In this document: piece by piece, positions 1 to 37,779 of the stretch
Numbering within the stretch: position 1 is the first letter of the stretch
Layout of the letters: every line of letters begins with the position of its first letter
The notes under the pieces: model-generated
Told to the model about the DNA's origin: nothing
Seen by the model: only the letters and a program-made list of their open reading frames with translations
Databases searched by the model: none
Assembly: GCA_934454745.1 (NCBI GenBank)
Contig: CAKSGP010000001.1
Location: 1 to 37,779 of the forward strand
Direction of reading: 5' to 3'
Length of the DNA: 37,779 nt
Origin: an uncultured Clostridia bacterium
GTDB taxonomy: Bacteria > Bacillota > Clostridia > UBA1381
Translations under genes and position numbers: made by a program

Positions 1-76
1 GCATAATAATAACCTCCAATTTGATATTTCTATTTTATACCATCTCGGAGGTTTACACAATATCTAAAGAAGACTC
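1..76 (-). mobile_element. Inward-facing terminus (terminal repeat, leader, RBS and ATG) of an IS256-family-like insertion sequence; its transposase gene runs leftwards out of the window
   Basis: Positions 1-76 are the exact reverse complement of 37703-37778, checked base by base. On the minus strand the region reads GAGTCTTCTTTAGATATTGTGTAAAC...TGGTATAAA...GGAGG-8nt-ATG, with the ATG being cat at 2-4. The innermost 26 nt align without gaps to the IS256 IRL as I remember it, matching GA at positions 1-2 and ATTGTGTAAA at positions 16-25. Only the first codon of the outward gene is inside the window. Confidence 0.6.
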
Positions 77-2580: not shown

Positions 2581-3525
2581 ATATCGTCAGGATGGCATAT
2601 TATGCTAATACCGTATACATATCAGAGTCTCTCCTAATCATTTTCTTTGGTCTTGCTTAGAATAAATACCGCAAATAAAATCAGTATTATTCCGCAAACA
2701 TTAAGCACACTTAAATTTTCATTAAAAAATACTACGCTGAAAACGGTCGCAGACATCGGCTCTATTATTCCGAGAGAAGACGCTACACCGGCAGGTAATT
2801 CTTTTAAACCGAGAGTTTGTAGGAAATACGGTAAAACAGTTGGAAAAATCCCCAGACCTATAATGAGTAAAACTATTACCGGAGGATTTTGTAAAGTCAA
2901 TTTTGCCATATTGGGAATGTCTGCACAAATAAGAGCTAATATACACATTGTAATAAAGCAATATAATGTGATTGTAAGCGGGTTATAGTTATATTTCATT
3001 GCGATTTTTGTTATAATATTATAAAAAGCATATGCAACACCCGAAAGTAATCCTATAATAAGCCCTGCCGTATTAAACTTAAATCCGCCTATAACTCCGG
3101 ATACCAAGCAGCAGCCCAAAATAACCGAAATTACTGATATTGCCTTAATTTTTGTGAATTTTTCTTTTAAAAAAATTACTGAATAAAACATTACTATAAT
3201 AGGAGAAGTATACGTAAGCACAGACGCCGTAGAAGCCGATGTTTTTTCCATTGAAATTAAATAAAACGATGATGTAAAATATATGCCAATGCCGCAACAA
3301 ACCGCAAGCAAAATGCCTTTTAAATCTGTTTTATAAAGCTTTTTGTCATAAAAGAATACTGCGATTGCCATAACGACTGCCGCCACAGTACTTCCCATTG
3401 CAGTCATTTGCAATGGTGAAAAACCATACGGTGATAATAAATTTGCAAAAATGCAGGATGTTCCTAAAAAAATTCCAGCTAAAACGACACAGAAGAATGC
3501 CTTTTTTTCATAAGTATCAACCTAA
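2581..3525. repeat. Copy 1 of a ~0.95-kb diverged direct duplication (partner 7850-8796)
   Basis: The offset is 5270-5271. Positions 2604-2821 versus 7874-8091 are identical by eye, and the remainder shows scattered substitutions. The duplicated unit spans the first ~40 nt of the PIG-L gene, the intergenic RBS, the whole eamA-type gene and ~15 nt upstream. Homology ends at 2581/7850 and fades around 3525/8796. Confidence 0.85.
2634..3511 (-). pseudogene. EamA/DMT-family transporter, duplicated copy with a -1 frameshift directly after the start codon
   Basis: The span is 878 nt versus 879 nt for the intact paralog at 7904-8782. Copy 1 reads ATG-A7-GG (T7 at 3502-3508) where copy 2 reads ATG-A8-T (T8 at 8772-8779). 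From the ATG at 3509-3511, translation hits a stop after 10 codons. The only long ORF restarts at M 3413 and would lack the first transmembrane helix. Confidence 0.7.
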
Positions 3526-7182: not shown

Positions 7183-7890
7183 TCAAGGCAACAATCTTTT
7201 TGTAATTAATTTCGGACTTGCCATACAAAGAGCAAAGCTCTCTGCAAATTCTACTCCGCATTGGTACCCATTATACTTGCTTACAACCCTGATTTCTTCG
7301 GTCATATCTATATTATCATGCTCTTCGAGCCATTCGTACTGTGACCTATGGCATTTTATCATCTTATATTTCAGCTCCATATACTCTGTAACATCAACAT
7401 AATCCGTCGGTGAAAATCCTATTCCGCCTTCGGGTTGCATATAATATATCGGCATAGGTCTGGCTTTTCCCTTTATTTCGGGCGCATACAAAGGGTTTGA
7501 AGCGGCATATGCAGCCTCTCTTGCAAGATTTGATGTTGCAATATGATCAGACATATAATCATTAGGATAATGAGTAATTATAAAATCAGGATTAACCTGC
7601 CGGATAATTCTTACAACCTTATTTCTTGATTCTCTATTATTCTCATAAATATCCAAATCGTCAAAGCCGCCGTAAATATGTTCAAATCCCCCTATATCGC
7701 AAGAGTCCTTTGCCTCCGAATCACGAATCAGAACCAATTCCTCGGGTTTTATAGTCATATGACCCAAATTACCGCTCGAAAGATTGCACACAACGATTCT
7801 GTCTCCTCTTGCTTTGCATTTCAAGAGGGTTCCGGCACAGTAAAACTCCATATCGTCGGGATGGCATATTATTGCTAATACCGTATACAT
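7183..7890 (-). CDS. PIG-L/LmbE-family deacetylase (paralog 2)
   Basis: VLAIICHPDDMEF (HPDD motif) and ITHYPNDYMSDH. I prefer the start at MYTVL (cat 7888-7890) behind AGGAGA. The 7 upstream codons in the ORF track lack an RBS. Confidence 0.85.
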   Translation of the reverse strand: MYTVLAIICHPDDMEFYCAGTLLKCKARGDRIVVCNLSSGNLGHMTIKPEELVLIRDSEAKDSCDIGGFEHIYGGFDDLDIYENNRESRNKVVRIIRQVNPDFIITHYPNDYMSDHIATSNLAREAAYAASNPLYAPEIKGKARPMPIYYMQPEGGIGFSPTDYVDVTEYMELKYKMIKCHRSQYEWLEEHDNIDMTEEIRVVSKYNGYQCGVEFAESFALCMASPKLITKRLLP

Positions 7891-8796
7891 ATCAGAGTCT
7901 CTCCTAATCATTTTCTTTGGTCTTGCTTAGAATAAATACCGCAAATAAAATCAGTATTATTCCGCAAACATTAAGCACACTTAAATTTTCATTAAAAAAT
8001 ACTACGCTGAAAACGGTCGCAGACATCGGCTCTATTATTCCGAGAGAAGACGCTACACCGGCAGGTAATTCTTTTAAACCGAGAGTTTGTAAGAAATACG
8101 GTAAAACAGATGTAAAAATACCTATACCTATAATGAGTAAAATTATTGCCGGAGGATTTTGTAAAGTCAATTTTGCCATACTGGGAATGTCTGCACAAAT
8201 AAGAGATAATATACACATTGTAATAAAGCCATATAACGTGATTGTAAGCGGATTATAGTTATATTTCATTGCGATTTTTGTCATAATATTATAAAAAGCA
8301 TATGCAACACCCGAAAGTAATCCTATAATAAGCCCTGTCGTATTAAACTTAAAGCCGCCTATAATTCCGGACACCAAGCAACAGCCCATAATAACCGAAA
8401 TTACCGCTATTGCCTTAATTTTTGTGAATTTTTCTTTTAAAAAAATTACTGAATAAAACATTACAATAATAGGAGCTGTATACATAAGCACGACCGCCGT
8501 AGAAACCGATGTTTTATCCATTGAAATATAATAAAGCGATGATGTAAAATATATACCAATGCCGCAAGAAACCGCGAGTAAAATACCCTTTAAGTCTGTT
8601 TGATAAAGCTTTTTATTATAAAAGAATACTGCGATTGCCGTAACAACTGCCGCCACAGTACCTCTCATTGCAATCATTTGCAATGGTGAAAATCCATATG
8701 GTGATAATAAATTTACAAAAATGCAGGATGCCCCGAAAAAAACTCCTGCCAAAACAACACAGAAGAATGCATTTTTTTTCATATGTATTACTTATA
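7850..8796. repeat. Copy 2 (intact) of the ~0.95-kb direct duplication (partner 2581-3525)
   Basis: See the copy 1 entry. This copy carries intact eamA-type and PIG-L genes. Confidence 0.85.
7904..8782 (-). CDS. EamA/DMT-family (drug/metabolite transporter) membrane protein
   Basis: 292 aa with ~10 hydrophobic helices arranged as two EamA-like halves. It is intact, unlike the copy at 2634-3511. Confidence 0.85.
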   Translation of the reverse strand: MKKNAFFCVVLAGVFFGASCIFVNLLSPYGFSPLQMIAMRGTVAAVVTAIAVFFYNKKLYQTDLKGILLAVSCGIGIYFTSSLYYISMDKTSVSTAVVLMYTAPIIVMFYSVIFLKEKFTKIKAIAVISVIMGCCLVSGIIGGFKFNTTGLIIGLLSGVAYAFYNIMTKIAMKYNYNPLTITLYGFITMCILSLICADIPSMAKLTLQNPPAIILLIIGIGIFTSVLPYFLQTLGLKELPAGVASSLGIIEPMSATVFSVVFFNENLSVLNVCGIILILFAVFILSKTKEND

Positions 8797-14752: not shown

Positions 14753-16528
14753 TTAATCAATTGTGAACATATGCAGAATATTATAACCGTCAGAATATTC
14801 TATCAGATTATCAAGTCGTGCAGTCTGTTCAAGCTTGTTGGTAATCAAAAGTGCTATTTTATAAGTTCCGGTTTTATTCGGAAGTGTCATGTTCGCATTC
14901 ACGTTATGCACAAGAAGCGTGCGGTCGGTATAATCGGCAGGATTTGTAGGATGCCAATCTTCCGGATTGCCTGCCTGCACCTTAGATATTACATTATTAT
15001 TTTCATCTAAAATTACAAAGTAGCTTGAAAGATTATGACCTGTAGCCATTCCGTAGTTTTGCAGGTACATATTTAATTTTATCTTTGATCCTGCCTTGGT
15101 TCCGCCGGTCACCGAAAGATTTTTGGCTGAAAACCTGTAACCGAGATGATCCCTTATGTACTCGAAAGCATTGCGTTGCACATTGCCGCCATCTTTATCT
15201 GTAAACCACGCATTACTGTAATGTACTCCTATATTATCAAGTATTTTAGGCGTAACTTCCTCACATTTCCAACCGTAAAGGATTGTTTGCTCAATAGGAA
15301 CGCCGTACATTGACATATCACCGTAAGAATGGTTGGCACTAAAAGTGGAAAGCCTTAACTCGGACATGGTTTCAATAGAACTGTAAGCATCAACATACGA
15401 ATTTGATTCATCTTTGAAATATCTTGAGGTGAAAAGCTCTGCATCCATTATGGCATACGGTGCTTCTTTCATACCGACATCCCAATATCCGCCGTAATTG
15501 CCCGGTCTCCAATAAGATTGACCCATATCTGCATCCGGATAAATTTTTCCAAAAAACGCATCACAGGCATAGCCCACACGATTATATCGGGGGTGGTCCT
15601 TGCTCAGAAGCATTGTTTTCCAATATGGTTGACGCATATTTATGTATAACGCTTTAGGAACCGTATCAAGTACTAATTCAACAACCTCTGTGAGACCTTC
15701 GTTGACTTGCTTTTGATATTCTTCCGCAGTCAAATCCGCTCTGCTCACTCCGTCATCCAAAGGCGTATCACCCAAAGATGTCCATTCTCCGTAATGTCCG
15801 AAAAGATTAACGCCTACACTGTAAATCGCCTCTTCCCATTTTTCCCAAATCTTACTGTAGTAGTTTTTTACGTGGTATATAATAGTGCTTTTTCTTGCAC
15901 CGCCTCTGATTGCTTCCGACACACCCGTATAATCTGTACTGTAGTGCATATAGTAAAAACCCAAATACATTTTTATGCCAAGATCCTTATATACCTTACA
16001 AACCGTATTTATGTATTCTATAGCCTCATCGGGAATGATTTTTTCATTCTTGTAATTGTACATTATAAAATATACGCGGGATACCGTTACACTCTCGCTA
16101 ACGGTATTGATGGATATATCGTTCTTTATACGTGAATAAAGCTTTTCATAGGTATAGTTTTGAGATTCGTTGCGAAGCTTACTGATATCGGGAACAACGT
16201 AATCTTCCTCAGAACGCCAGCCACGATCCGGATTACCGTTAAGCAAAACGCTGTTTTCTGCCGGAAGCGCAGTAAATGTAAGCTGTGCAGTAGCGGGGAC
16301 AGATATTTTCTCAGTTGTATTTTTTGTTTCAGAATAAGACAGCGAACTGTCAGATGAAGAATTGTCGGAAGAGGAATTATCCGACGAAGTGTCGTCAGCG
16401 GATGTCGTACTGCTGCTTGATGAATTATCAGGCTTTGGGTTGCTTGGCTTTTTGCTGTCACTGCATCCGGTAAAAAGACTAAGCATAAATACAAAACACA
16501 GTAAAACTGAAACTAATCTTTTATTCAT
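14753..16528 (-). CDS. Lipoprotein with a TIM-barrel glycosidase-like body (DUF4874/DUF4832-like)
   Basis: Lipobox LSLFTGC. A ~40-aa Ser/Asp-rich linker is encoded at ~16342-16459. The motifs NGNPDRGWR and LFGHYGEWT recall the DUF4874/DUF4832 putative hydrolase pair. The family assignment is from memory only. Confidence 0.55.
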   Translation of the reverse strand: MNKRLVSVLLCFVFMLSLFTGCSDSKKPSNPKPDNSSSSSTTSADDTSSDNSSSDNSSSDSSLSYSETKNTTEKISVPATAQLTFTALPAENSVLLNGNPDRGWRSEEDYVVPDISKLRNESQNYTYEKLYSRIKNDISINTVSESVTVSRVYFIMYNYKNEKIIPDEAIEYINTVCKVYKDLGIKMYLGFYYMHYSTDYTGVSEAIRGGARKSTIIYHVKNYYSKIWEKWEEAIYSVGVNLFGHYGEWTSLGDTPLDDGVSRADLTAEEYQKQVNEGLTEVVELVLDTVPKALYINMRQPYWKTMLLSKDHPRYNRVGYACDAFFGKIYPDADMGQSYWRPGNYGGYWDVGMKEAPYAIMDAELFTSRYFKDESNSYVDAYSSIETMSELRLSTFSANHSYGDMSMYGVPIEQTILYGWKCEEVTPKILDNIGVHYSNAWFTDKDGGNVQRNAFEYIRDHLGYRFSAKNLSVTGGTKAGSKIKLNMYLQNYGMATGHNLSSYFVILDENNNVISKVQAGNPEDWHPTNPADYTDRTLLVHNVNANMTLPNKTGTYKIALLITNKLEQTARLDNLIEYSDGYNILHMFTID

Positions 16529-19500
16529 CGCTTATTCCTCCCCCTAATGTATTTTCCCTGTCTTTACTGTCCGTAAGCAAGAGTACCTTTTTACGGCGTT
16601 TAAGCAATAAAATAACCGTTATCCCCGCGCCTGCCGTCACGACTGCCGAGATTACTATTATAGCAATAATCCAACCGGAAGACTCGTCTGTCGGCTTTCT
16701 TCTCTTTTTTATAATTCTTTTAATAAGTGTTTTTTTATCGCCCTTATTTTTATTCTGAGAACTGTCCGTTATATCAGATGAATAATCCTCTTCATTCCCT
16801 TTTGGTTCATTAAACCACGGATGTTTATAAATCTCATCCATATCATACAACATATCACCCACAAGCTGCGCCTGCGTGTAAATCGAAGTAGGGGGATATA
16901 TTGCTATTCCGCGGCCGTTTTTCAGAGGTACAAGAACAACAGTATAATAAGTATTCGTAGAAAGACCGTCCACCGAAGCCATATTAACATTATTGCCAAC
17001 AATAAGAGATTTCAAATATTTATACAATGTAACATTATAAAGATCCTTATCGGCAAAATTCTCATATACATCAATACGGTATCCGTCGGCTCCGGGAAAG
17101 AAATCCCACCCCACGCTAAAGGAATGTCCAGAAACCTCATCTTGAATCACAAAGTAATCGTTATTAGTAGTTTCCGGAAGCGAATCGTAAAACGATCCTG
17201 CATCACCGGGTACATCAAATGGGTTATATGCTATATCGTCGGCATTCATTATTTTGCCCGTAAACACATTTCTTGCCTTATCGGCTCCGTCTACAAAGGC
17301 TCCGTTATGAGATAAAACCCCATTTTTCGATAACCACATTCCTCCGAAGAAAGCTTTTTGGCTGTTAATAAGGCTGCCGTCGTCATTACTGCCGCCAAAC
17401 TCTCCAAATCCAAATACCACACGGTCTACCACCTCATATTCGGAAAGCACTTCATTTTTGCCCTTAGAATCCTTGTATGTTTCAAGCGCCGAAAGCGGTA
17501 CATAAACATATCCTTCAAATCCGCTTGGCAAGTTAATTCTCTGACCGACAACCGTAACATTTGACCAATTAGTTGCTCCGTCCTGTAAAGTTGCAATCAC
17601 GGCGGTGTATTTTACAGAATAATATTTACTTTCAGAGGTTCTTAACTGGAAGAAGAGCGCGCTCTTACCACCTTTCTTTGTTTCAGGAATGTTAAGGTAA
17701 AAGACAAGACCTTTAGAGCCTTCAAGTGAAAACGGCATTGATACCGAAAATCTTGGGAAATGATCGCCGTGTATCCAAACATACTCCGAGCTTGTAAATT
17801 CAAGACCCCGTGTTCCGAACGGCGCATCGTAATATCCGGTTTTTTGGTCGGTTGCTTCACCGTTTTCATCAAGAACCTCCGAAAGCGAGTCATTCTCATC
17901 CGGTATATCATTTATTACAGTTGCAGCAAATTTACTATTTGCTTCATTCTTATGATCCGATGAAATTGCGGTGCTAATACTAAAAGTCTCATTGATATCG
18001 TATGAGTCAAACGGAATTTTAACTGACTCCCAAACAGCAACATCGTCACGATCATATTTTTTCGGAACATTATTGCCGAAAAGATTTATCTCGCCCATAC
18101 CGTATAGCTTTAGCTTGTCGGCGTCTGCACTGTAATCAAGAAAAGCTATCGTTCCTATCTTCGGGCTACCGTAATTTCCGCCGACCTTACGCCAACTCAT
18201 AAACAATTTTGAAACAGCGCCCTTAAGTCCTGCACCGGCATATGTTGTAATAGAGTTATAATCTATTTTTACCCACCCCTTAAAACCGGCGGGAATCAAT
18301 ATTTCGTTACTTGAATTTGCGGCAACCGTAGTCCAATAAGCATCTCCGTTTTGTAACAGGCTATATACAGCGCCTTCGGAAAGTCTGCCGTAATCCTCTG
18401 CTTTTACCTGAAGGAAAAATCGGTTTCCGACATTTTCCGGCATTTCAATATACATCATAATTCCGCCCGCAGAGCTAAGCCTTGCCTGATAGTCTGTATC
18501 AATATCAAATACTGTTCTCGGCGCATAGGCGCTGCCTTGAAGGACTACAGGTTCTCCTGAGGCGGACACCTCATATGCATAGCCTTGATTTATAGACGGC
18601 GTCAAGATATTTCCTATATTATTTACCGTAAGTTTTCCATCCGCATCATCTGAGCGGCTCAAATTACCCTGTACCACAAAGCCTGCCGAATAATCGCAAG
18701 CAAGCAAGCTTTGAATAACCTGTGTGCCGCCGAAATATATATCTGAATAATCATACTTACCGTTATTGATAACTATAAAACTTCCGAAACGAATAGATGA
18801 ATTTACATATACCTTTTCAAATCCAAAAACAAATTTTTTCACATTTTCCGGTTGCTTTTTAAAGGAAGCTGCAGGAATTCTTATCCATCCTTCAAAACCG
18901 GCAGGCAGTTTAAGAATGTTACTGCTCTCAACAGTCTCTTTTTGCCACTCGGCGGAATTTCCCATTCCAAGCAAATAATATGCAGCATTTTTATTTAACT
19001 CAAGCTCATTGCCGATAATTACCGCATTTTCGCCACTGTTTTCAAGGTTAACGTAAAAAAGTATTGCTTCACTCTGTGAAAGGGTAATGCCGGTTGATAC
19101 CTCCGTTTCTACGGCATTTTTCATATTCATAACAATATCATTTTCTTTTGCCGTGACAGTATAATTAACATATTTTGAAAGCTGTGATTTTTTTGTCTGC
19201 TCAAATGTAACCGCTCTCGCATTTTCGCCCATAGGGTAAAAATCTCCGAAGGTGATCTGTGAACCCGTATATGCCTTAATTGAAGTAATCGGCACTTCCG
19301 CATTTTTATCAACACGCATAGTGACAAGCTCTTTTGACCCGTTATTTACTGCCATAAATGTTCCGATTTTCAAATTGCCGTACTTACCGCCAAGCTCATA
19401 AGGCAAAATATTTATCGCTGTAAAACTAATTGCCGAAGTTGCTTTTTCAAGGGTATCTGTATGTAAAAAGCTGGAATACGGTATTCTTATCCAACCGCTG

Positions 19501-22500
19501 AAACCTTGCTCTACGGTAATTCTGCCATCAATTCCGGCGTCTACGCCCTTCCAGTTCTGGCTGTTACAGTCATACATAAAGTATTTAGAACCGTTAGTCA
19601 ATCCCATACCGCTGTCCCCAAGATCAATTCTGAAGCTTGAAGCAACAATGCCCTGCTTTTCAACATAAAACATTAAGGCCTGACCATCGTTTATAACAGC
19701 CGTATTATTTGTTTTAATGGTTGTATATCCGGTGCCTGCAGGAGCCTCGGTAACATAATACTTTTCTCCGAGAAAATCGCCAACAGTAATTTTATATGAA
19801 TTGTTAATTACGGATTCATCACATATAGCCTGCTTATCCGCCGTTCCTTGCTTTATGTGGAATCTGTTATCTATTTCGTCAAGAAAAGTTATGGCACCCA
19901 ATACCAATGAACCGTATTTTCCGCCAATGGAATCGGGGTATACTCTGATTATAGTTTGATTGAAATCAGTCGTTTCAGTACTGTTACCGGATTTAAAAGA
20001 AGAGATCGGTATTCTTATCCAGCCTTTAAAGCCTGCAGGAATTTCCATAAATCCAAACGAATTTTTATCGGTTGTGGTAAGCGCTTCCCACTCTCCTTTT
20101 GTAGTATCAAAACGGTAATACGGCAAATTCCTGTGACTCAGACACCAACCGCTCTTAATACCCAAACAAAGATTTATCGGAGCGGTAGCGTCACTATGGT
20201 CAACATAAAACAGCAACGAACCGTTTACATTTACTTTTTTGCCAAGCCCGGCATTAACATATAACGCCGTTCTTGTGTTTCCGTTTGAAATTGCCGAATT
20301 AAGATTGGAGTACTCGCCTTCTGCCGAAAGCTTGAATCCGGCAACCTCCCCTATAGGAGAGCTGATCACAAAATTAGTTTTTGATTCGGTATTAAGCGGA
20401 AAATCATTTCCAAGCGGAATGTAATTGTTGCTTACAAACATACTGCTCTCAAAAGCAGAGGCATTAGAAGGATCAATGCTGTCAACAAGATAAAAATCAC
20501 CTATAACGAGGCTTCCGGCTGCGCCACCCAAATTGTAAACAGAAAATCTAAGATTTTTAAGCTCTGTTACATTTGTTCTTAAAGAATTTACAGGCAGCAT
20601 AACCCACCCTGTAAATTCTGCCGGTAATGTTAAATAACTGCTGTCTGATGATAAATTTTGTACTGAATTGTAACCGCTGGATGTGGTTTTCGATTTTTTC
20701 CACACAGCTTCCTTGGAATTATAGGTATAATATTCTTTATTTGTACCGATACTGTACCAATTAAAAAGAATATTAAACTTGATTTCTTCCGTTGCGTTTT
20801 TATGATCAACATAAAACAGTAAAGCCTTATCAGTTGAATCCTGTGTAAAACCATTAGAGGCAAACAAGGTATTACCGCTTATCATAGTCTGATAACCGCT
20901 GGCGCTGCTGAATTCAAAACAGTCTCTGCCCTCGCTCAATTTAGAAACTGAAATTGTATTTAAATTTGAGTTGGTAAAGCCCGTTATGGTAAACGGAGTT
21001 GCAGAAAGTCGTGCCTTGGGATAAGTAACTGTAAACGGAGGATTGTTTTCAAGACCTCCGTGTTTTACAGATTCTACCGCAGTTGCCGTATACGGCGGAA
21101 CCTCGCCGCGTTCTTCTTTATATGTGCCGTTAGCAGCAGCGCCAGCTGAAAACTCATAATAATAACCGTTATCTATACCGGGGCTGTAAGAAGCATCATT
21201 GTTTTTGCTGCTAACCTGATAATAATCTTTATCAGCAAGGGTATTTGTTGCCGCATCCTCGGTGTTTATAACCGAAGAATTATAATAAGCCTTCTTATAA
21301 AGGTTAATATAGTTTTTCTCGCCGTCTATACGAATATCGATAGCGTTGGTAACAGCAGTTTTTGAAAGCATTACGGTACCTAAATATACACCGTCATTAT
21401 CAGTTAAAGCCTTTAAGGACTCTATTTTCTTTCCCTTTGCGCCATCAAATGAAGATGTCGGCGCAAGAACATAACCTTCAAAACCGTCTTTAATATCCGC
21501 CTTTCCCTCTGCGTCAACCGAAACGGCTTGCCATTTGCGCTCTCCGCGATTTAAAAGATAAACGGGTTCTTCGCCTTTTAGTCCGTATTTATCGTTAAGT
21601 AATAACGAAAGCTTGTTATTTTCACCTAACGACTGTCTTACATAAAGAATTACCGCACCGCCGGTACTAAGCTTAGCAGAACTATCCTCAGTAAAGTTAA
21701 GCAAAGCGGATTTGCCTTTCGTAAAATAAGTATATCCGTTTGAAAGCGCGGTTTCATTTTCTACAGCTTCGGCAGAATTTACACTTTCCGTGTCTAAAAC
21801 CGTTACACTGTTATGAGCTCTTTCAATAACTAAGTCGGCAACGCGTTTATCGTTTTCACTTTCAGTTACAACAGCTTTAAGAAGATCCTTATTCCCATTA
21901 TCTACAAACATAAAGCTGCCGAAGGAAACTCCATCTGCAGTATAATCACCGCCAAGATTTTTGGGGCGGATATTTATACGGTAAACATAATTTGAAAGTC
22001 CGGCGTTGAAAAAGCTGCTATATGGTATACGCACCCAACCCTCAAAGCCTGCCGGAAAAACAATATGACCGAGTCTTCCGTCAATGTGAGACCTGTTTGT
22101 TTTTACCGTTTCCCACTCATCGTTTCCGCGAGCAAGCATCTGAACGGTCGAGCCGTTTTTAATTTGGATATAATCGTTAGCGCCCACTGCAGGATAGATT
22201 ACATCTTCTCCGCCGTCCTTGGTTTTTACCATTGACGCGCCCACCATTTGAAAAAGCCACTCGCACTCGGGAGCTTCTGATGGCATTTTTACATAAAATA
22301 AAACGGCTTCATCTTCCTTAAATTCCGTAAAATTCGGAGTAACATTATTCCGCTTACTTCCCTCGGTGATAATAAATTCACCTTGGTTGTAAATATTTCC
22401 GACTTCGGCGCCGCTGTTATCAAAAGCTTTACCGTTTTTTAATGTTCCGAGTATATTGCCCTGAGTATCCACATACTTACTAAAGGATACTTTAACAGAG

Positions 22501-22811
22501 CCCGCACTATATTCCAAGGTCTGATCAAAGCTTATATCGGCCATTGCATTTACTTCATATGAAGTGTTTGCCGCAAGAGCGGCAGTTGCCCAACCGTAAT
22601 TAACAGTAGTGCTTTTAATTCCGGAAAGGGTGTTATCATACCTTTTTGAAGTAACGCCGAATGCGGTATTTGTAGAGCTGGCTTTATAAAAATCAAGAAG
22701 AGTTGCATTATATGCCGTTGTGTTGTCTGCCGCGCTGAAAACCTCCGGAACAAGCATTGCCGACATAATAATAAGTAAAGTTAAATAAACCGATAGTATT
22801 TTTGCCTTCAT
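16521..22811 (-). CDS. Giant (2096 aa) secreted, C-terminally membrane-anchored surface protein with 8 copies of an unrecognised repeat module
   Basis: Signal peptide MKAKILSVYLTLLIIMSAMLVPEVFSA. Eight P-x-G-F-x-G-W/Y motifs are encoded at ~22030-22059, 21461-21520, 20581-20640, 20001-20050, 19471-19520, 18861-18915, 18255-18300 and 17485-17540. An FN3-like segment lies near the C-terminus. The TM helix GWIIAIIVISAVVTAGAGITVILLL (~16602-16676) is followed by KRRKK. The stop overlaps the next gene by 8 nt. Confidence 0.85.
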   Translation of the reverse strand: MKAKILSVYLTLLIIMSAMLVPEVFSAADNTTAYNATLLDFYKASSTNTAFGVTSKRYDNTLSGIKSTTVNYGWATAALAANTSYEVNAMADISFDQTLEYSAGSVKVSFSKYVDTQGNILGTLKNGKAFDNSGAEVGNIYNQGEFIITEGSKRNNVTPNFTEFKEDEAVLFYVKMPSEAPECEWLFQMVGASMVKTKDGGEDVIYPAVGANDYIQIKNGSTVQMLARGNDEWETVKTNRSHIDGRLGHIVFPAGFEGWVRIPYSSFFNAGLSNYVYRINIRPKNLGGDYTADGVSFGSFMFVDNGNKDLLKAVVTESENDKRVADLVIERAHNSVTVLDTESVNSAEAVENETALSNGYTYFTKGKSALLNFTEDSSAKLSTGGAVILYVRQSLGENNKLSLLLNDKYGLKGEEPVYLLNRGERKWQAVSVDAEGKADIKDGFEGYVLAPTSSFDGAKGKKIESLKALTDNDGVYLGTVMLSKTAVTNAIDIRIDGEKNYINLYKKAYYNSSVINTEDAATNTLADKDYYQVSSKNNDASYSPGIDNGYYYEFSAGAAANGTYKEERGEVPPYTATAVESVKHGGLENNPPFTVTYPKARLSATPFTITGFTNSNLNTISVSKLSEGRDCFEFSSASGYQTMISGNTLFASNGFTQDSTDKALLFYVDHKNATEEIKFNILFNWYSIGTNKEYYTYNSKEAVWKKSKTTSSGYNSVQNLSSDSSYLTLPAEFTGWVMLPVNSLRTNVTELKNLRFSVYNLGGAAGSLVIGDFYLVDSIDPSNASAFESSMFVSNNYIPLGNDFPLNTESKTNFVISSPIGEVAGFKLSAEGEYSNLNSAISNGNTRTALYVNAGLGKKVNVNGSLLFYVDHSDATAPINLCLGIKSGWCLSHRNLPYYRFDTTKGEWEALTTTDKNSFGFMEIPAGFKGWIRIPISSFKSGNSTETTDFNQTIIRVYPDSIGGKYGSLVLGAITFLDEIDNRFHIKQGTADKQAICDESVINNSYKITVGDFLGEKYYVTEAPAGTGYTTIKTNNTAVINDGQALMFYVEKQGIVASSFRIDLGDSGMGLTNGSKYFMYDCNSQNWKGVDAGIDGRITVEQGFSGWIRIPYSSFLHTDTLEKATSAISFTAINILPYELGGKYGNLKIGTFMAVNNGSKELVTMRVDKNAEVPITSIKAYTGSQITFGDFYPMGENARAVTFEQTKKSQLSKYVNYTVTAKENDIVMNMKNAVETEVSTGITLSQSEAILFYVNLENSGENAVIIGNELELNKNAAYYLLGMGNSAEWQKETVESSNILKLPAGFEGWIRIPAASFKKQPENVKKFVFGFEKVYVNSSIRFGSFIVINNGKYDYSDIYFGGTQVIQSLLACDYSAGFVVQGNLSRSDDADGKLTVNNIGNILTPSINQGYAYEVSASGEPVVLQGSAYAPRTVFDIDTDYQARLSSAGGIMMYIEMPENVGNRFFLQVKAEDYGRLSEGAVYSLLQNGDAYWTTVAANSSNEILIPAGFKGWVKIDYNSITTYAGAGLKGAVSKLFMSWRKVGGNYGSPKIGTIAFLDYSADADKLKLYGMGEINLFGNNVPKKYDRDDVAVWESVKIPFDSYDINETFSISTAISSDHKNEANSKFAATVINDIPDENDSLSEVLDENGEATDQKTGYYDAPFGTRGLEFTSSEYVWIHGDHFPRFSVSMPFSLEGSKGLVFYLNIPETKKGGKSALFFQLRTSESKYYSVKYTAVIATLQDGATNWSNVTVVGQRINLPSGFEGYVYVPLSALETYKDSKGKNEVLSEYEVVDRVVFGFGEFGGSNDDGSLINSQKAFFGGMWLSKNGVLSHNGAFVDGADKARNVFTGKIMNADDIAYNPFDVPGDAGSFYDSLPETTNNDYFVIQDEVSGHSFSVGWDFFPGADGYRIDVYENFADKDLYNVTLYKYLKSLIVGNNVNMASVDGLSTNTYYTVVLVPLKNGRGIAIYPPTSIYTQAQLVGDMLYDMDEIYKHPWFNEPKGNEEDYSSDITDSSQNKNKGDKKTLIKRIIKKRRKPTDESSGWIIAIIVISAVVTAGAGITVILLLKRRKKVLLLTDSKDRENTLGGGISDE
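20495..21008. repeat. ~514-bp near-identical segment shared with 24225-24738
   Basis: The offset is a constant 3730 nt with no indels. It encodes LSATPFTITGFTNSNLNTISVS...GSLVIGDF in both giant genes. Confidence 0.85.
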
Positions 22812-22829
22812 AAAAGCTCCTTTCGAAAG

Positions 22830-22856
22830 GGCAACACCCGGCTTGCGGGTGTTGCC
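22830..22856 (-). other. GC-rich 11-bp-stem hairpin between the two giant genes
   Basis: GGCAACACCCG (22830-22840) and CGGGTGTTGCC (22846-22856) flank a 5-nt loop. The adjacent palindrome CCTTTCGAAAGG (22819-22830) overlaps the AAAGGAG RBS of the 2096-aa gene. Confidence 0.55.
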
Positions 22857-22869
22857 GGTTTTGAACAGC

Positions 22870-25812
22870 TTACTGATTCAGAAGAAATCGTCTTAACAAT
22901 GCGTCCTGCGTACCCTCTCCGGTCAAGTCAATAACACTGTTCGACTGATCGGCATTCTCATTTAAATAAACAAGATCGCATATATTTATATTTTCGTCCT
23001 TATTAAAGTCTCCCTGCTTATAAAACAAAGCGGTTTTGCCCGTGAAATCTATGTTAATAATATCAAGATCATCGCTTGTATTTATCGACATAATATCTGA
23101 AACCGAAAGACCGTTTGCAAGTGAATTAAAGTAGAATTTAATTCTGCTGAAGGATAATGTTTTTGAAACCGGAATCTTTACCCATCCCTCAAAGTTTTCA
23201 GGCAAGCAAATCATTCCGTCAGTTGAAACGCCTATCCATCCCTGCCTGTTCGTTGCATACGCCTTAACGTTTGACATATCTCCTACCGAAAGGGTAAATT
23301 TGCACTCTCTTTCGGTTTTTATATAAAGCATTATGGCTCCGCCCTCGGCAACGGTTCCTTTTGCGTTAATAGTTGAGTAAACAACATTGTTTTCATTTGT
23401 AAATACACCGTTTGCCACGCTGACATTACCGGTCACCTTTTCTGTAACCGTAGGAATATTGCCGTTTACGCCCTCATAGGAAGCTCCGTTTATAAAATGG
23501 GTGGGTGCAACCGTTGTAGCCGCCGATATATCGGAAAAAGTAACTGTGCCGACATCCATAGCCGCAGTCAAAACAGTAAAGTCATTAAATTTTGTAAAGG
23601 CACCGTTCGTTGTACTGTCATTTAAACAACCCGTATCACTGTAAATTGATGTAAGCGGAATTGATACTAAGCCCTCAAAACCTTTCGGAATGGTTATGGG
23701 AGCAATTGTTCTTCCCCACAGCTTATATTCTGTGTTTCCCGTGGATTTTTCCATCCATTTATCGGCGCAGTTGTCTAATAAATAGTACGGTTTATTTGGG
23801 GCAGTCAAGAAAAGATTGCTGCCGGTAACAAACTTATAATCGTCCGCAGTATCATTCTTCACATAAAACATTATTGAGCCGTTTTTAGTTAAAGCCATTT
23901 CATTACTCTGAACATAATAGTGCTGTGTTTTTGTAGTGCCGTCATAACTAATCTCACCGGATGAATTTGCCTGCTCTGTTCTTTTCTGTGTTGCAGTAAG
24001 GGTTGCGGTTTTTCCGCTAACCGAAATTGCAATATTTGATTGATTAAGATTAGAAGTCTGATAAATACCGTAATCCGAGGTCCGCTCTGTCTTGACTGCA
24101 GCAACCGTATCCGCTGCGGCAAACGGAAAATCGCCGCCGAGTGCTATTGAATTTGTGCTTACAAACACACTGTTGTTTAATGCCTCAGTATTTACAGCCG
24201 GATCTATATCGTCTATTAAAGTGAAATCGCCTATAACGAGGCTTCCGGCTTTGTCGCCCAAATTGTAAACAGAAAATCTAAGATTTTTAAGCTCTGTTAC
24301 ATTTGTTCTTAAAGAATTTGCAGGCAGCATAACCCAACCGGTAAATTCTGCCGGCAATGTTAAATAACTGCTGTCTGATGATAAATTTTGTACTGAATTG
24401 TAACCGCTGACTGTGGTTACAGACTTTTTCCACACAGCTTCATTAGCATTATAAGTATAATATTCTTTATTTGTACCGATACTGTACCAATTAAAAAGAA
24501 TATTAAAGTTGATTTCTTCCGTTGCGTTTTTATGATTTACATAAAACAGCAAAGCCTTATCAGTTGAATCCTGTGTAAAACCATTAGAGGCAAACAAGGT
24601 ATTACCGCTCATCATGGTCTGATAACCGCTGGCGCTGCTGAATTCAAAGCGACCTCTGCCCTCGCTTAATTGAGAAACTGAAATTGTGTTTAAATTTGAG
24701 TTAGTAAAGCCTGTTATGGTAAACGGAGTTGCAGAAAGCTTGCTGCTTCCAAGTAATTCGGCAGACTTATCTTCACCTACTGTAACGCAGTAAGAGCTGT
24801 TGTTTCCTTTATAATATTGGGCAAGCTGTTCTTCTTTTCCGACAATATCATAAAAGCCGTCGTATGAGTTCGTAAAACCGTCAAAAGAAAGAGAATTTGC
24901 AAAATAGCAACGGTTTTCGGCAAAATTGTAAGTTGTTGAGTTTACCTTTATTCCCACAGAATTTTCCACAGTATTTATATCTGCCGAAACAGTCATTAAA
25001 TTTGAAATTTCAATTACATTTTCGGTTGTAATCTTATCAAAATACAAATTGACTCTGTGCATATAGTTGCAGTTTGCAATAGCGGTTTTATTAACAAGCG
25101 TATCGTTGGGTATATATACCCAACCCTCAAAGCCTGCCGGAATAGTTATTGCTTTAGATGTTGATTTAGGACCTACACCGAGAGTAACATCTTTGTCAGA
25201 CCTAAACCATTTATCAGTACCGTCGGTAAGGAAAAGTGCCGTACTGTCTGCCATGGCAACATAACCCTGCGCATAATTTTCGCCGTTAAGCTTGATATTA
25301 CCGTTTTCATCAAATCCTACTGTTTGAAGTTCTGTGTAAAGCTTCGTTTCCTCTGCTGTTTTTCCAAGCTTAATATAGAACATAAAACCAACATCTTGTT
25401 GACTCAAATCAACAAGACCATCTAAGCCACTAAAGGTTGAATTATTATTTACAGAAGCAGTATAAAAGCACCTATAAATTGCTTGGTTTTTATAGGCTTC
25501 CACCGCATAAGCGTCAGCTATACTGTTTCCGTATTGCGGATTCCATGTGTAGGTTAAACGGTCGGAGGGAAGCGACTTCACAAGCGGCTCCTGATCGTTA
25601 TCTGCTGTATAATGTTCACCGAGGGTGGCTTTACCAGCAGAGAACGATCCTGCCTGCGGAAGTTGTGAACTTGAATATGAGCCCGATACTATATTGATGT
25701 TTTTTCCTTGAACAACCGCAGGTTCATTCTCTGCCATGGCTCCGATAAATATTTGCGAAACTAAAAGGAGTAATGCTAATAAGATTGCCGTTGATTTTGT
25801 GGTTTTTTTCAT
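22870..25812 (-). CDS. 980-aa secreted protein with 4 copies of the same repeat module and a C-terminal dockerin-like segment
   Basis: Signal peptide MKKTTKSTAILLALLLLVSQIFIGAMA. Module motifs are encoded at ~25100-25150, 24311-24360, 23641-23700 and 23161-23215. The C-terminal GDFNKDENINICDLVYL fits the DxNxDxxIxxxD calcium loop of dockerins. The second loop, DLTGEGTQDALL, is degenerate. Confidence 0.8.
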   Translation of the reverse strand: MKKTTKSTAILLALLLLVSQIFIGAMAENEPAVVQGKNINIVSGSYSSSQLPQAGSFSAGKATLGEHYTADNDQEPLVKSLPSDRLTYTWNPQYGNSIADAYAVEAYKNQAIYRCFYTASVNNNSTFSGLDGLVDLSQQDVGFMFYIKLGKTAEETKLYTELQTVGFDENGNIKLNGENYAQGYVAMADSTALFLTDGTDKWFRSDKDVTLGVGPKSTSKAITIPAGFEGWVYIPNDTLVNKTAIANCNYMHRVNLYFDKITTENVIEISNLMTVSADINTVENSVGIKVNSTTYNFAENRCYFANSLSFDGFTNSYDGFYDIVGKEEQLAQYYKGNNSSYCVTVGEDKSAELLGSSKLSATPFTITGFTNSNLNTISVSQLSEGRGRFEFSSASGYQTMMSGNTLFASNGFTQDSTDKALLFYVNHKNATEEINFNILFNWYSIGTNKEYYTYNANEAVWKKSVTTVSGYNSVQNLSSDSSYLTLPAEFTGWVMLPANSLRTNVTELKNLRFSVYNLGDKAGSLVIGDFTLIDDIDPAVNTEALNNSVFVSTNSIALGGDFPFAAADTVAAVKTERTSDYGIYQTSNLNQSNIAISVSGKTATLTATQKRTEQANSSGEISYDGTTKTQHYYVQSNEMALTKNGSIMFYVKNDTADDYKFVTGSNLFLTAPNKPYYLLDNCADKWMEKSTGNTEYKLWGRTIAPITIPKGFEGLVSIPLTSIYSDTGCLNDSTTNGAFTKFNDFTVLTAAMDVGTVTFSDISAATTVAPTHFINGASYEGVNGNIPTVTEKVTGNVSVANGVFTNENNVVYSTINAKGTVAEGGAIMLYIKTERECKFTLSVGDMSNVKAYATNRQGWIGVSTDGMICLPENFEGWVKIPVSKTLSFSRIKFYFNSLANGLSVSDIMSINTSDDLDIINIDFTGKTALFYKQGDFNKDENINICDLVYLNENADQSNSVIDLTGEGTQDALLRRFLLNQ
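24225..24738. repeat. Partner of the 20495-21008 repeat
   Basis: See 20495-21008. Confidence 0.85.
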
Positions 25813-37672: not shown

Positions 37673-37702
37673 GCTTAAGCGTCTATTAACTGTAGGATAG
37701 TA

Positions 37703-37779
37703 GAGTCTTCTTTAGATATTGTGTAAACCTCCGAGATGGTATAAAATAGAAATATCAAATTGGAGGTTATTATTATGCC
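37703..37779 (+). mobile_element. Inward-facing terminus of a second, inverted copy of the same IS256-family-like element; its transposase ATG at 37775-37777 reads out of the window
   Basis: 37703-37778 is the reverse complement of 1-76. It reads GAGTCTTCTTTAGATATTGTGTAAAC (terminal repeat), TGgTATAAA (-10-like, 37737-37745), GGAGG (37762-37766), 8 nt, then ATG. Confidence 0.6.

Follow-up and report, generated by a model that had tools for sequence, protein, structure and literature searches.

Two inverted copies of an ISCth4-like IS256-family insertion sequence at the ends of a gut Clostridia chromosomal segment

Introduction

How does a stretch of bacterial DNA come to begin and end with the same sequence in opposite orientation? 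This question is raised by the DNA analysed here, a stretch of 37,779 nt from an uncultured Clostridia bacterium (the window), whose two ends form a perfect inverted repeat. An earlier note, made from the sequence alone, read the arms as the left ends of two IS256-like elements flanking a cargo. Our analysis supports the first part of this reading and leads to a different view of the second: the window is very probably a piece of gut Clostridia chromosome bounded by two independent simple insertions of an IS256-family element in inverted orientation, and the segment between them is not the cargo of a composite element.

Results and Discussion

Extent and anatomy of the terminal repeat

Repeat search and direct reading of both ends showed that positions 1–76 and 37703–37778 are exact reverse complements (76 nt, 100% complementary), as the earlier note had stated, with position i pairing with position 37779-i. 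The right arm is 77 nt long and reaches the last base of the window. Base 37779 has no partner because the window begins one base too late, the partner being the base before its start; the repeat is therefore truncated by the window edge and has no natural end there. The features of the two arms are as follows.

37703–37779, plus strand: start of the right-hand IS copy (77 nt), a left end that reads out of the window; the same 77-mer heads full-length copies of about 1507 bp
37703–37728, plus strand: left terminal inverted repeat (IRL) of the right copy, GAGTCTTCTTTAGATATTGTGTAAAC, by direct reading
37737–37747, plus strand: possible extended -10 element, TGGTATAAA (37737–37745) / TAAAAT, a candidate only
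37762–37766, plus strand: GGAGG, separated by an 8-nt spacer from the ATG
37775–37777, plus strand: ATG of the transposase gene of the right copy; the gene leaves the window
1–76, minus strand: start of the left-hand IS copy (76 nt), again the left end and again directed out of the window
76–51, minus strand: IRL of the left copy, reverse complement of the right arm
4–2, minus strand: ATG of the left copy; the gene leaves the window

The inner limits of the arms (76/77 and 37702/37703) are the true terminus of the element, whereas the outer limit is only the edge of the window. The break falls on the same G of GAGTC in each of ten distinct upstream flanks, the two window ends counted in, and IS-free alleles cease to align exactly at 77 and 37702. 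The sharp stop of the match, to which the earlier note had drawn attention, is thus a real element boundary. The 26-nt block has only two sites in the window, and 100 shuffles gave no match with up to three mismatches allowed. The arrangement of GGAGG, 8 nt and ATG described previously was found at the positions listed. The transposase coding letters visible within the window are ATG CC only, and a scan with the sigma-70 consensus did not call the TGgTATAAA box proposed as a -10 element.

Full-length copies encode an IS256-family transposase

The first 45 nt of the arm had one hit among GTDB species representatives, in the uncultured Ruminococcaceae MAG UMGS538, and were also present in 10 human-gut metagenome contigs; in a scan of a viral contig collection, this 45-mer was absent. 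Two copies (L005 and L007) carry a 77-mer identical to that of the window. The element measures 1505–1508 bp from GAGTC to GAACC (L006, L007, L008 and L038), that is, about 1507 bp, and its right terminus reads ...TTTGAAGAAGAACC. In copies with enough downstream DNA, an open reading frame of 416 aa begins at offset 72 with MPRYKDSPEV.

The protein of L007 matched PF00872 (Transposase_mut) with 389 bits (cut-off 21) and NCBIfam NF033543 (IS256 family transposase) with 438 bits (cut-off 150). Its best annotated relatives in plasmid records are IS256-family transposases of 55–68% identity. In a BLASTP alignment, residues D182, D248 and E355 lie opposite the DDE residues D167, D233 and E341 of IS256. 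The left and right terminal repeats (IRL and IRR) are 26-nt imperfect repeats alike at 19 of 26 positions, and a TGTGTAAA core occupies positions 18–25 in five ends: the IRL and IRR of the new element, the IRL and IRR of IS256, and the R-TIR of ISCth4. The family features compared, namely a single Mutator-type DDE open reading frame, the DDE residues, imperfect terminal repeats of about 26–31 nt with subterminal TGTAAA, a target duplication of 8 (or 9) bp and a length of about 1.2–1.5 kb, are all present in the element.

These results indicate that the repeat of the window is the left end of an IS256-family insertion sequence of about 1507 bp with a single open reading frame for a DDE transposase. 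The assignment of the arms to such a left end, with IRL, leader and start codon, therefore stands, as does the inverted arrangement of the two copies with transposase genes reading outward. The window's own copies, of which 77 and 76 nt are visible, are presumably full length and equipped with transposase and right ends, judging from the other copies that carry the same 77-mer.

The earlier note had aligned the 26-nt block without gaps to a quoted IRL of IS256. The quoted sequence was exact: it matches the real IS256 of Enterococcus faecalis pTEF1 at 100% and is present, with at least 99% identity, in over 450 further plasmids. GA and ATTGTGTAAA do align as described, but the total is 12 of 26 positions, and the real signal is the TGTGTAAA core.

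The same note had also considered that the flanking DNA might encode no transposase, as if the repeat were the 5' end common to two copies of a housekeeping gene. Full-length copies headed by the same 77-mer encode the 416-aa Transposase_mut/IS256-family protein, so that the outward gene is a transposase gene and not a housekeeping gene. A foldback chimera arising in the library or the assembly would accord with the position of the repeat exactly at the window ends and with its length, which equals a common assembler k-mer. Against such an artefact, both junctions recur across independent samples and in the products of different assemblers (MEGAHIT, SPAdes and Logan), and the 8-bp duplication together with the empty sites described below proves transposition. 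We reject both readings on the independent junctions, the identity of the transposase and the duplication; their probability is practically negligible.

Empty and occupied alleles at the two insertion sites

Junction alleles were found by looking up the terminal genes of the window in other gut metagenomes. Identity between the empty-site DNA and the window was 98.6–100%, with alignments that ended exactly at 37702 at the right site and began exactly at 77 at the left site. The features used in this comparison are as follows.

77–37702, no strand: resident chromosomal segment of 37,626 bp, collinear with an IS-free contig and outside the mobile element
37695–37702, plus strand: target-site duplication GGATAGTA of the right insertion, inner copy, 8 bp; the outer copy lies in L048, L049, L053 and L055
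77–84, minus strand: predicted target duplication ATACAATC of the left insertion, 8 bp, of which the inner copy is seen; predicted from the right copy and from L038

On the right, most contigs carry the empty allele, in which ...ctgtaGGATAGTA runs on into ccctgtttg..., followed by genes for a class V aminotransferase, an aldose epimerase and a DUF4874 protein. The empty site reads ctgtaGGATAGTAccctgtttg, and another empty right site was present in the contig of the cluster representative of the flank aminotransferase. The right outer junction was recovered by way of a 77-aa flank gene in four contigs (L048, L049, L053 and L055), where it reads ...caaacagggTACTATCC joined to GGTTCTTCTTCAAATTATGTGTAAAG; in the orientation of the window, the IRR is followed by GGATAGTAccctgtttg. 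GGATAGTA is found on both sides of the right IS copy and once in the empty site. It therefore brackets the right IS alone, which is what a simple insertion would leave.

On the left, the empty allele reads ...gacaatacaatc joined to atatattataat..., followed by an island with HTH, 456-aa and methyltransferase genes; the site itself is ...gacaATACAATC joined to atatattataat. This junction is empty in L022–24 and L027–30 and occupied in L025, L026 and L031. Searches through the 73-aa HTH and 456-aa flank proteins, which belong to a widespread island, did not recover the outer junction of the left copy or its outer duplication among the places listed, near-identical ones being merged.

The occupied contigs L020, L025, L026 and L031 carry the IS junction of the window and end a few tens of bases into the IS. 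Sample ERZ27286954 has the IS at both junctions (L020 and L031), and in ERZ15610058 the left inner (L025) and right outer (L049) junctions are both present. Across the aligned inner DNA, two contigs (L019 and L021) match the window at 100% identity and are nevertheless empty; the insertions are therefore recent. Both lie in 3' intergenic DNA, the right one 30 nt downstream of the stop codon of AraC and the left one 23 nt beyond an 82-aa gene.

An IS-free contig of 74,991 nt (Hadza NODE_665_length_74991) contains both empty sites, 38,285 nt apart as against 37,626 in the window, and in it the segment lies between its two outer flanks in unchanged order. The segment is resident and collinear because the empty alleles keep their outer flanks and this contig holds both sites. 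What had been called cargo is thus chromosome into which each IS inserted on its own, as the empty sites, the collinear contig and the duplication at the right copy indicate.

This bears directly on whether a composite of the Tn4001 type, in which two inverted IS copies carried the 37.6-kb segment here as a unit, could account for the window. Inverted IS256-family copies around a DNA segment are the architecture of Tn4001, and both junctions are occupied in at least one other sample (L020 and L031), which would fit joint arrival. However, either IS may be missing on its own in alleles where the segment is still linked to unchanged outer genes, and the order of flank, segment and flank is unchanged in the 75-kb IS-free contig. 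A composite would also have its duplication only at the outer ends and would leave an empty site lacking the cargo; here GGATAGTA brackets the right IS alone, and the segment is present between the empty sites. We therefore reject a composite origin, which is highly improbable, and favor two simple insertions.

Under two simple insertions, each copy would have entered singly with its left end toward the segment, giving the inverted pair with outward transposase genes. By analogy with IS256 and ISCth4, insertion may have proceeded by copy-out/paste-in transposition, in which a circular intermediate would form and the target would be cut with an 8-bp stagger. Beyond the window, the right copy is expected to continue for an element of about 1.5 kb and then to be followed by GGATAGTACCCTGTTTG, while the left copy would be followed by ATACAATC plus ATATATTATAAT (ATACAATCATATATTATAAT after the IRR).

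Arm length as a probable product of contig assembly

The window is very likely a whole short-read contig, and we infer that it was assembled with k = 77, the length and perfection of the arms following from the assembly. In a de Bruijn graph, a unique contig would end at the first k-mer common to other copies, which lies k nt inside the repeat, or k-1 nt inside it if another copy happens to share the preceding base. An assembler that could not pass a many-copy repeat would accordingly stop 77 (k) or 76 (k-1) nt into each copy. The numbers of IS bases at contig ends were 77 and 76 in the window, 55 and 54 in SPAdes contigs that other samples gave for these junctions, and 29 in a Logan contig; at the left junction, where the IS is preceded by C, the value is k-1 in both the SPAdes contig and the window. 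Since the arm length fits an assembler k-mer, neither the length nor the perfect identity of the arms is biologically informative.

Other copies of the element

Two transposase clusters about 98% identical to the protein of L007 (P0002 and P0003) contain 944 and 415 member sequences; like most other close clusters, they occupy stand-alone contigs about 1.5 kb long. A collapsed repeat assembles in this way, and the IS is therefore multi-copy.

The related copy L038 is bracketed by a clean duplication of 8 bp, TTTGAATT. In contrast, no target duplication was found at four full-length metagenomic copies (L001, L006, L008 and L011), possibly because of chimeric assembly. Contigs crossing a 1.5-kb repeat are often chimeric, and these copies were for that reason not weighed against family membership. 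L006 and L008 have the right flank in common and different left flanks, which could result from chimeric assembly across the repeat or from recombination between copies.

Recombination would also allow a further possibility for the window, in which the same two simple insertions serve as a substrate for inversion of the 37.6-kb segment in some cells or strains. Inverted copies of about 1.5 kb are a classic substrate for homologous inversion, the two copies here are identical over the visible 76 nt, and the pattern of L006 and L008 would fit exchange between copies. That pattern is equally that of a chimeric assembly through the repeat, and an inversion would leave the junction k-mers unchanged, so that short-read contigs would not reveal it. 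We regard such inversion as unlikely. It is somewhat more doubtful still that the glycan-utilization segment, 37.6 kb in length, has now become invertible by IS–IS recombination or mobilizable as a very large Tn4001-like composite.

Several copies are themselves altered. The L010 copy is interrupted after about residue 140, and the L002 copy changes midway into a diverged IS256-family relative. In the UMGS538 contig, a 274-bp MITE-like element breaks the IS copy (L001, 1569–1842) and occurs a second time there (L003, 7826–8099); its terminal repeats read TAGACAATACAATCAGG, and its duplication is TA. In the window, 14 nt at 77–90 on the minus strand, TAGACAATACAATC, match the terminal repeat of this MITE and adjoin the left IS insertion point; in the empty left allele, the match is 15 nt long. 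That it marks a full element was rejected, as there is no partner repeat within 8 kb of flank, and the match may be a solitary remnant.

Relation to known systems

ISCth4 of Acetivibrio (Clostridium) thermocellum ATCC 27405, with transpososome structures 6XG8, 6XGW and 6XGX, is the closest solved relative. It is 1503 bp long, generates 8-bp duplications and transposes by copy-out/paste-in; its catalytic residues are D175, D241 and E348, and subterminal TGTAAA is a conserved feature of the IS256 family (Kosek et al., PMC7780238). The new element resembles it in length (about 1507 against 1503 bp), in having a single open reading frame (416 against 410 aa), in its 8-bp target duplication and in its Clostridia host. 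The transposases align end to end (ISCth4 TnpA, 6xg8; 464 bits) with about 50% identity, and the terminal repeats of both elements have TTGTGTAAAC at positions 17–26. The two elements differ in about half of the transposase residues, and the first 16 nt of their terminal repeats are unrelated. Moreover, a tip-proximal TTTACA / TAAAAT pair that could form a circle-junction promoter is not evident by eye in the new element.

IS256 itself, the family prototype from Staphylococcus and Enterococcus, shares with the new element the Pfam and NCBIfam families, an alignable DDE triad, 26-nt imperfect repeats with TGTGTAAA at 18–25 and GA at the IRL tip, and a transposase start about 70–100 nt inside the IRL. 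Its transposase is only 27% identical, its IRL agrees at 12 of 26 positions, and it is shorter (1324 against about 1507 bp). IS256 ends in TTGACT, which is used as the -35 of hybrid promoters; this end is absent from the new element. Tn4001 is comparable in that it, too, has DNA enclosed by two IS256-family copies in inverted orientation; in contrast, the enclosed DNA in the present case is resident chromosome 37.6 kb in length, a separate empty site exists for each IS, and the right copy has a duplication to itself. These comparisons suggest that uncultured gut Clostridia carry here an ISCth4-like IS256-family element that is new and probably still without a name.

The finding is ordinary mobile-element biology of a routine kind. 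It has little import beyond annotation of this ISCth4-like element of the IS256 family, which is abundant in uncultured Clostridia of the human gut and for which two insertion sites are supplied with empty alleles and dated by polymorphism. In addition, where the two ends of a sequence form a perfect inverted repeat whose length is k or k-1 nt, this is the signature of a contig lying between two copies of a collapsed repeat.

The segment and its surroundings

The left outer flank in IS-free strains (L022, 2560–10849; L056–L065) encodes the 73-aa HTH protein, the 456-aa protein, which is without a family, and two N6/N4 methyltransferases, and probably represents a mobile island for restriction-modification or defence. 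The 73-aa HTH protein occurs in exactly this form on 163 contigs; source labels in its cluster include Ruminococcaceae and Oscillospiraceae, with Coprobacter for a 71-aa variant. Many contigs break 700–1100 nt upstream of the 456-aa gene.

The segment between the insertions carries genes for Fic, DUF6883, EamA, PIG-L, GFO/IDH, GH63, GH4 and DUF4874/DUF4832 proteins, together with open reading frames of 2096 and 980 aa, DUF5696, two ABC permease pairs, an 890-aa binding protein and AraC. The surroundings of the 2096-aa and 980-aa frames resemble a glycan-use locus (GH4, GH63, DUF4874/DUF4832, DUF5696, ABC permease pairs and AraC), whose solute-binding protein is unusually long at 890 aa. The two EamA transporter genes and their neighboring PIG-L genes are 93–97% identical (2581–3517 and about 7850–8790). 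The 2096-aa and 980-aa frames (16521–25812, minus strand) are without a Pfam match; they share a 300-nt block that is 90% alike (20470–20769 and 24200–24499), and a 34-nt motif occurs eight times across 18262–25142.
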